Position numbers and translations under genes: made by a program. DNA of 64,000 bases, from the NCBI GenBank assembly GCA_963740085.1, contig CAVUCU010000001.1, forward strand, positions 480,001 to 544,000, given 5' to 3'. Shown piece by piece: positions 60,276 to 60,875 of this stretch (positions are counted from its first letter, which is position 1; each line of letters begins with the position of its first letter). This stretch comes from Nitrospirota bacterium. Its GTDB lineage: Bacteria; Nitrospirota; UBA9217. The notes under the pieces were generated by a model that saw only the letters and a program-made list of their open reading frames with translations, ran no database searches and was not told where the DNA came from.

Positions 60276-60343
60276 CACAAAGACAGAGAGATCACACAGA
60301 GAACAATAACGACCTTTACTTTGTGTCTTTGTGCCTCAGTGGC
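60276..60343. repeat. Inverted 9-bp-period repeat element
   Basis: cacaaagacagagagatcacacagag ... ctttgtgtctttgtgcctcagtggc. Confidence 0.6.
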
Positions 60344-60875
60344 GACCATGTGCTTTTGCTTCCAGCTCCAGGAGTCTCTTCTTCATCCCGATCCCTCCGG
60401 AGAACCCGCCCAGCGTACCTGCTGAGCTGATGACGCGATGTCAGGGAATAATGATCGGCATTGGATTGGCGCCGAGCGCCCCGCCCACCGCCCTTGCTGC
60501 CTTCGCATTCTTTATCCTCTTCGCGATCCAGGCATAGGACCTCGTCTCGCCAAACGGGATCTCCGCTGCCGCCTTCCAGACCGCCTGCTGGAAGGCCGTA
60601 TAATAACGCATATCAAGAGGCAGGTCAAATAAAACGCGTTTGCCCGAGAAGTATTGCTCGAGCAGTTTAACCGTCTTTTCCATTATCTTCGCTCTCCCTC
60701 TCCCCCCGCGGGAGAGGGCCGGGGTGAGGGGGGACGCCGGACTTTTCATTTCCTTTTCAACTGCCTTCTTCTCTTTCTTCGGCAGAACAATCCTGGATAT
60801 CCCCTTTTCTGACACAGCCACTCCCGCCCAGCCAAAAGGGGTCTTAAAATAAATCAGATCCTGATCGAATGGCAT
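60336..60875 (-). CDS. ogt: Methylated-DNA--protein-cysteine methyltransferase, probable selenoprotein (PUHRV), 179 aa
   Basis: [60 protein letters not shown]-stop; TGA (60441-60443) occupies the catalytic Cys codon. Confidence 0.85.
60408..60427 (-). promoter_or_regulatory. Bacterial SECIS-like hairpin
   Basis: GCUCAGC-AGGUAC-GCUGGGC starting 13 nt after the UGA; loop resembles the AGGUCU loop of the E. coli fdhF SECIS. Confidence 0.75.
60694..60732. repeat. Palindromic element inserted in frame in ogt
   Basis: CCCTCTCCC-cccgc-GGGAGAGGG-ccggggtgaggg, encoding PLTPALSRGGRG. Confidence 0.75.

Follow-up and report, generated by a model that had tools for sequence, protein, structure and literature searches.

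The window analysed here, a stretch of 64,000 nucleotides from a soil or sediment bacterium of the uncultured Nitrospirota, carries an ogt gene whose reading frame is interrupted by a TGA at the codon of the alkyl-accepting residue. In other organisms, the Ogt acceptor is a methyl-accepting cysteine, and the enzyme is a suicide DNA-repair protein. Does the TGA end the protein before its active site, or is it read as selenocysteine (Sec)? Our analysis suggests that the gene very probably encodes a full-length Ogt with selenocysteine as its alkyl acceptor, produced by Sec recoding of the UGA. The features of the gene are as follows.

60336..60875, minus strand: ogt coding sequence of 179 residues and a stop codon, with the internal TGA translated (Pfam PF01035 and PF02870; NCBIfam TIGR00589)
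60612..60851, minus strand: N-terminal ribonuclease-like domain, residues 9-88 (PF02870)
60357..60596, minus strand: C-terminal DNA-binding and active-site domain, residues 94-173, spanning the TGA (PF01035)
60441..60443, minus strand: in-frame TGA, proposed Sec codon, residue 145, at the acceptor place of PCHRV (alignment to M. tuberculosis Ogt; relatives; contigs)
60336..60338, minus strand: ordinary TGA stop of ogt (sequence; TGA is common as a stop in the window)

The frame opens with an ATG at 60875, its start lying 10 nt past the stop of an upstream murJ-like ORF (60886-62475), and runs to the second TGA at 60338-60336. On the minus strand, the in-frame TGA (60443-60441) comes directly after ...ATT ATT CCC and is followed by 34 more codons before the second TGA. 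The table-11 ORF (60441..60875) comprises 144 aa and ends in ...PIIIP; translating the TGA as U gives a protein of 179 residues with U at position 145. An earlier reading made from the letters alone (the sequence-only reading) had placed a selenocysteine at this TGA, and its coordinates, codon and downstream translation all agree with the minus-strand sequence when TGA is read as U.

The read-through protein matches PF01035 with an E value of 1.9e-33 and 114.6 bits (cut-off 27) over profile positions 1-80 of 81, and TIGR00589 (ogt) with 112 bits (cut-off 46.4); its N-terminus matches PF02870 with 29.4 bits (cut-off 21). Since the PF01035 match covers residues 94-173, it crosses the TGA, and membership of PF01035 and TIGR00589 requires that the TGA be read through. 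The C-terminus beyond the TGA, described as intact in the sequence-only reading, indeed has the GGF/Y-x-GG turn and the LLxLE end, with the PF01035 match reaching residue 173. When the protein is aligned to the solved M. tuberculosis Ogt (4wxc/4bhb, E about 1e-29), residue 145 falls opposite the Cys of PCHRV; E. coli Ada-C (1sfe, 2.7e-22) and human AGT (1eh6, 1e-22) are further solved matches. Like the Cys-type Ogt, Ada-C and MGMT proteins (4bhb/4wxc, 1eh6 and 1sfe; E 6e-30 to 3e-22), the protein has the two-domain layout, the stretch N-P-x-P-I-I-I-P-acceptor-H-R-V, the G-G-F/Y-x-G-G turn and LLxLE. Unlike them, it has UGA rather than UGU or UGC as acceptor codon, and an extra 40-nt palindromic insert in its linker. 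The frame of the acceptor motif is intact around residue 145, where a nucleophile stands only if Sec (or Cys) is inserted.

To follow the acceptor codon through relatives, we cut 30 ogt loci (L021-L050) from the window's genome and its relatives. The codon is TGA in 19 of these and TGT or TGC in the other 11 (L047 was read separately). The presence of TGA at the same codon in 19 of 30 loci goes beyond chance. The further loci (L051-L130, of which six repeat genomes of the first set) add two TGA forms (L054 and L059) and two Cys forms (L055 and L057); from L061 on, where the loci are those of another Nitrospiraceae bacterium and of other phyla, every parsed one carries a Cys codon. TGG was not found at the acceptor codon among the parsed loci, for which the pattern accepted Cys or stop only; no motif was recognised in L124 and L126, two of the 110 loci.

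We extended this picture to 401 genomes sampled evenly across the phylum, examining the best 150 matches, with 293 weaker ones beyond them. Among the matches listed, at least 28 genomes have a TGA inside the ogt match, all of them in the window's own family and distributed over 11 genera; a further 19 genomes of that family, again among the matches listed, have an uninterrupted ogt match across the codon. In this sample the TGA is placed inside the match, and its exact position is confirmed in the cut loci. Both states occur within five genera, and two genomes of the window's own genus (G005 and G006) carry Cys codons. A tree of Ogt proteins with 38 rows is poorly resolved (21 of its 35 inner branches are open), so it gives neither the direction nor the exact number of Sec/Cys changes; the best tree has 10, and at least two are forced by well-supported branches, one of them by a sister pair within one genus (L030, Sec; L037, Cys). 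Together, the codon states and the tree indicate that predicted Sec forms and Cys forms of Ogt have been repeatedly exchanged within one Nitrospirota family.

In two other genomes of the same genus, the ogt match is broken up: it falls into two overlapping or adjacent pieces at G004:C12:1593671-1594214 and is split, with 2 TGA, at G001:C10:14694-15229. Frameshifts or assembly problems are possible causes.

We found the complete machinery for selenocysteine in the window's own genome. The tRNA-Sec gene scores 66.7 bits and is called tRNA-SeC with anticodon tca by ARAGORN, and selA (607.8 bits) and selB (376.5 bits) are neighbours on contig 3, with tRNA-Sec a few kb away. The selD gene scores 351 bits and contains one in-frame TGA near the N-terminus in the context ...SSCAG-U-AAK..., presumably the place where Sec- or Cys-type SelD carries its catalytic residue. 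The TGA makes selD a second gene in this organism that needs UGA read-through. In the 64 genomes of the window's family, selA is present in 55. It is present in 24 of the 28 genomes with Sec-type ogt, 28 being those with a TGA among the matches listed, and was not found in the remaining four: G015 (96% complete), G027 and G001 (86% each) and G002 (68%).

As to where these genes lie, selA, selB and tRNA-Sec fall within ~8.5 kb of the genome (C3:190079-198514; loci L001, L009 and L010). The selD gene is located outside the window (C1:750805-751725; L018), and the selenophosphate synthetase is thus itself a predicted selenoprotein. Inside the window, positions 3035-3784 on the minus strand (G000:C1:483035-483784) give a weak partial match to the selD model of 68 bits, below the cut-off of 125, and probably encode another member of the same ATP-binding superfamily rather than a second SelD.

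A SECIS element in its consensus form is a stem-loop shortly after the UGA with a G in the apical loop. A candidate lies just downstream of the ogt TGA.

60404..60431, minus strand: candidate SECIS hairpin (fold prediction; pairing in Sec versus Cys forms)

The upper stem of this hairpin starts 13 nt after the TGA and comprises 7 bp (60427-60421 with 60414-60408), closed by a 6-nt loop with GG inside (60420-60415); three further pairs (60431-60429 with 60406-60404) follow across a 1x1 internal loop. Over 18 distinct Sec forms, 123 of 126 cells of the upper stem are paired; over 13 Cys forms from the same family, 61 of 91 are. At the third-codon sites within the stem (nt 18, 30, 33 and 36), the Sec forms all share one base whereas the Cys forms differ, and this invariance holds even though the amino acid of codon 9 may be T, S or A; outside the stem, the third positions of the Sec forms change freely. 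Three of the 13 Cys forms (L035, L037 and L040) keep 7/7 stem pairs, which we read as the mark of a recent exchange of the Sec/Cys state, in one direction or the other.

Other measures of the hairpin gave less. The sole compensatory change, from A-U to G-C in L043, costs a Leu-to-Pro change in the protein. Covariation is not significant in the Sec-form alignment, where the observed values are reached by 311 of 500 shuffles, nor is it in the Cys-form alignment. The fold of the single sequence after the TGA is no stabler than that of shuffles (z 0.37), and a scan of 60200-60600 against Rfam at E up to 10 returned no SECIS family, the three matches being unrelated and at chance level. Since covariation is not significant, the support for the hairpin is its conservation, and the conserved peptide SSAG-x-LGG accounts for part of the stem pairing. 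An extended hairpin of 16 pairs was also considered and rejected: its lower pairs 7-45, 9-43 and 12-41 form in only 13, 10 and 8 of the 18 Sec forms, so the hairpin is restricted to the 7-bp stem and the three pairs. Judged by its sequence, the hairpin appears specific to the Sec forms and would be a binding site for SelB.

The sequence-only reading had suggested searching for the Sec genes, for conservation of the TGA opposite Cys codons, and for a conserved hairpin. All four genes, selA, selB, selD and tRNA-Sec, are present; the TGA is kept at its codon and aligns with the Cys codons of relatives; and the downstream hairpin is kept in Sec forms and much less so in Cys forms. Together with selection on the codons downstream of the TGA and the standing of this ogt as the sole Ogt gene of its genome, both described below, these results support its interpretation of the codon as selenocysteine.

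One alternative is that the UGA acts mostly as a stop or is read by a near-cognate tRNA, as Trp (giving PWHRV, as in the alkyltransferase-like ATL proteins) or as Cys, with the selenium supply setting the mixture. In known bacterial systems, a UGA meant for Sec can also end translation, the two outcomes competing, and Trp is known to enter at UGA at a low level. ATL proteins carry Trp or Ala in place of a nucleophilic acceptor and are not known to have the N-terminal domain. The Nitrospirota protein has the C-terminal DNA-binding domain in common with them, as illustrated by its match to the solved S. pombe Atl1 (3gva, E 2.2e-06), which lends this alternative some support. Unlike an ATL protein, it retains the N-terminal domain and has TGA, which can encode Sec, rather than TGG or GCN; the lack of a nucleophile typical of ATL proteins would arise here only if the UGA were read as Trp. 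The completeness of the Sec machinery and the specificity of the hairpin for Sec forms also speak against mostly stop or near-cognate reading, as do relatives with Cys codons and none with TGG among the loci parsed for Cys or stop. Finally, if the product lacked the nucleophile, the genome would encode no O6-alkylguanine transferase. We consider this alternative quite improbable.

A second alternative is that the gene is a nonsense pseudogene, in which a recent change from TGT or TGC to TGA killed ogt and left a 144-residue fragment that lacks the active site. The table-11 ORF of 144 aa and the Cys codons of G005 and G006 in the same genus would fit such an event. A recent loss is hard to reconcile with a TGA that is found in at least 28 genomes of 11 genera among the matches listed. 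Over the 29 codons after the TGA, 17 Sec forms have a pS of 0.458 and a pN of 0.125, giving a pN/pS of 0.27, and most relatives differ from the window's copy mainly at synonymous sites (L023, for instance, by 10 synonymous and 4 non-synonymous changes). The ogt frame after the TGA is under purifying selection, and the low pN/pS is unlike the behaviour of a dead 3' remnant. The synonymous sites of the hairpin, moreover, are frozen in the TGA forms only. A single PF01035 match occurs in the genome (3.46 Mb, 7 contigs, 98.5% complete), so a dead copy would leave it with no Ogt. Taken together, these observations make a pseudogene very improbable.

The base call itself was compared with contigs of sequencing runs. 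Contigs from three runs of three different studies, X3 (DNA) and X18 and X19 (RNA libraries), cover 60441-60443 and list no other letter there, although several synonymous sites close by do depart from the window's sequence; with 7 to 15 other letters per 150 nt, they come from relatives and not from the same strain. The contigs of X18 and X19, being from RNA libraries, are no proof of transcription, RNA level, ends or strand, and a scan for promoters and terminators gave nothing above shuffles. The sequence-only reading had proposed confirming the base in raw reads: the three independent runs do agree on TGA, as contigs of relatives rather than as raw reads of the source. A one-base sequencing or assembly error, which the metagenome-type assembly in 7 contigs and the lack of any contig over 60416-60496 in the best-matching run X1 might suggest, has next to no probability given the agreement of X3, X18 and X19 and the same TGA in 18 further loci of other genomes.

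A reassigned genetic code, with TGA as Trp or Gly, was likewise ruled out. TGA is a normal stop here, since it ends ogt itself and 37 of the 81 long frames in the window.

We then propose a mechanistic model for selenocysteine insertion and DNA repair by this Ogt. Within the coding sequence, the hairpin 13 nt downstream of UGA145 would recruit SelB and Sec-tRNA(Sec) to the UGA. Sec would be inserted at position 145, and translation would go on for 34 codons to the ordinary UGA stop. In the finished protein, the selenolate would accept the alkyl group of O6-alkylguanine in a single irreversible reaction, and the result would be Se-alkyl-selenocysteine in a spent protein. We infer Sec insertion, binding of SelB to the hairpin and DNA repair by this protein from the sequence. 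Standard bacterial Sec recoding suffices for the model, and no new mechanism is needed.

It is tempting to speculate that the UGA is in addition a selenium-dependent switch of the organism's sole alkyltransferase, yielding the Sec form when selenium is available and non-catalytic products when it is not, although we regard such a switch as unlikely. If it were true, the Sec form might be faster than the Cys form or need less help from the Cys-activating Asn/His/Glu network. When selenium is lacking, the UGA would bring termination or Trp insertion, the Trp product having the PWHRV of ATL damage sensors. Sec/Cys exchange in the family would then track the local selenium supply.

A selenocysteine-containing Ogt is a known kind of protein, in print since 2005. 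The 2005 report gives CHY0809 of Carboxydothermus hydrogenoformans as a selenocysteine-containing methylated-DNA-protein-cysteine methyltransferase and calls this protein unique and recent (PMC1287953). The ogt described here resembles CHY0809 in having a UGA for the active-site Cys, a genome with selA, selB, selD and tRNA-Sec, and a stem-loop just after the UGA (PMC1287953). It differs in its host, an uncultured Nitrospirota instead of a thermophilic Firmicute, and in its abundance: the form called unique in 2005 occurs here in at least 28 genomes of one family, beside Cys forms. The sequence-only reading had mentioned computational predictions of such homologues in some deltaproteobacteria; a prediction had indeed been made before, the precedent being not a vague deltaproteobacterial one but the annotated CHY0809.

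Later surveys met the Sec form in small numbers. The metagenome of the Olavius symbionts gave 2 Sec sequences and 8 other homologues of the family (PMC1976440), and the GOS survey gave 1 Sec sequence against 2,879 Cys homologues (PMC2398784). Reviews of 2022 and 2026 list the Sec-type alkyltransferase among known selenoprotein families. In the main texts of the literature searched, we found no report of a Sec-type Ogt in Nitrospirota, nor any of a family with about half of its Ogt orthologues as Sec forms.

The sequence-only reading knew of no biochemical characterisation. For natural Sec-type Ogt we likewise found none in the literature searched (main texts, largely of open journals). For engineered protein, there is functional work on human AGT with Sec145. 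In that study, AGT C145U made with the UTu system shields E. coli deficient in ada and ogt from MNNG to about the same extent as the wild type, and U145 is active with N137A, a change that inactivates the Cys form (Haruna et al. 2014; PMC4150793). Like the Nitrospirota Ogt, it has Sec at the acceptor position of an alkyltransferase. The engineered protein is artificial, with Sec inserted at UAG by EF-Tu and no SECIS (PMC4150793), whereas the Nitrospirota protein is natural, has the Asn still in place (N-P-M-P...) and would depend on SelB and a SECIS. By analogy with the protection of E. coli against MNNG by human AGT Sec145, the Sec chemistry of alkyl transfer is plausible for the Nitrospirota protein.

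What is new here is the lineage, an uncultured Nitrospirota, and the repeated Sec/Cys exchange within one family. With few exceptions, selenoproteins are redox enzymes, in which the selenium serves again and again. An alkyltransferase of the type proposed would use up one Sec per lesion repaired, which would place the family among the few non-redox, sacrificial uses of Sec. The many natural Sec/Cys pairs of one protein, some of them in one genus, offer a way to compare what Sec buys in a single-turnover nucleophile. They also carry a warning for annotation: a 144-residue 'truncated Ogt' in these genomes is likely to be a mis-called selenoprotein, and the organisms should not be taken as Ogt-less.

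The inter-domain linker of Ogt contains a side feature that is no part of the Sec mechanism.

60691..60736, minus strand: G+C-rich palindromic insert of ~40 nt in the inter-domain linker of Ogt (sequence; relatives; contig depth)

The insert is translated as ...SPLTPALSRGGRGR... and has similar counterparts in some relatives only (L022, L023 and L025), with another form in L035. In all four metagenome runs, it was only at this stretch that many unrelated contigs piled up, their ends loose to its left and right, and its depth in X3 rises to 437, compared with 0-113 elsewhere in X3. The window's own genome holds 3 copies at up to 5 mismatches. The insert looks like a widespread short repeat element that has been placed in frame.

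Downstream of ogt, the listed ATG of the next ORF (59591-60349, minus strand) overlaps the ogt stop, and its first 40 residues look non-homologous. From ...MVLIRLVVGPLQVNCFIL... on, the ORF resembles what we take to be metallo-beta-lactamase-fold hydrolases. Since the resemblance begins only at MVLIRLVVGPLQVNCFIL, the true start is probably the ATG near 60229, which leaves ~100 nt between the two genes.
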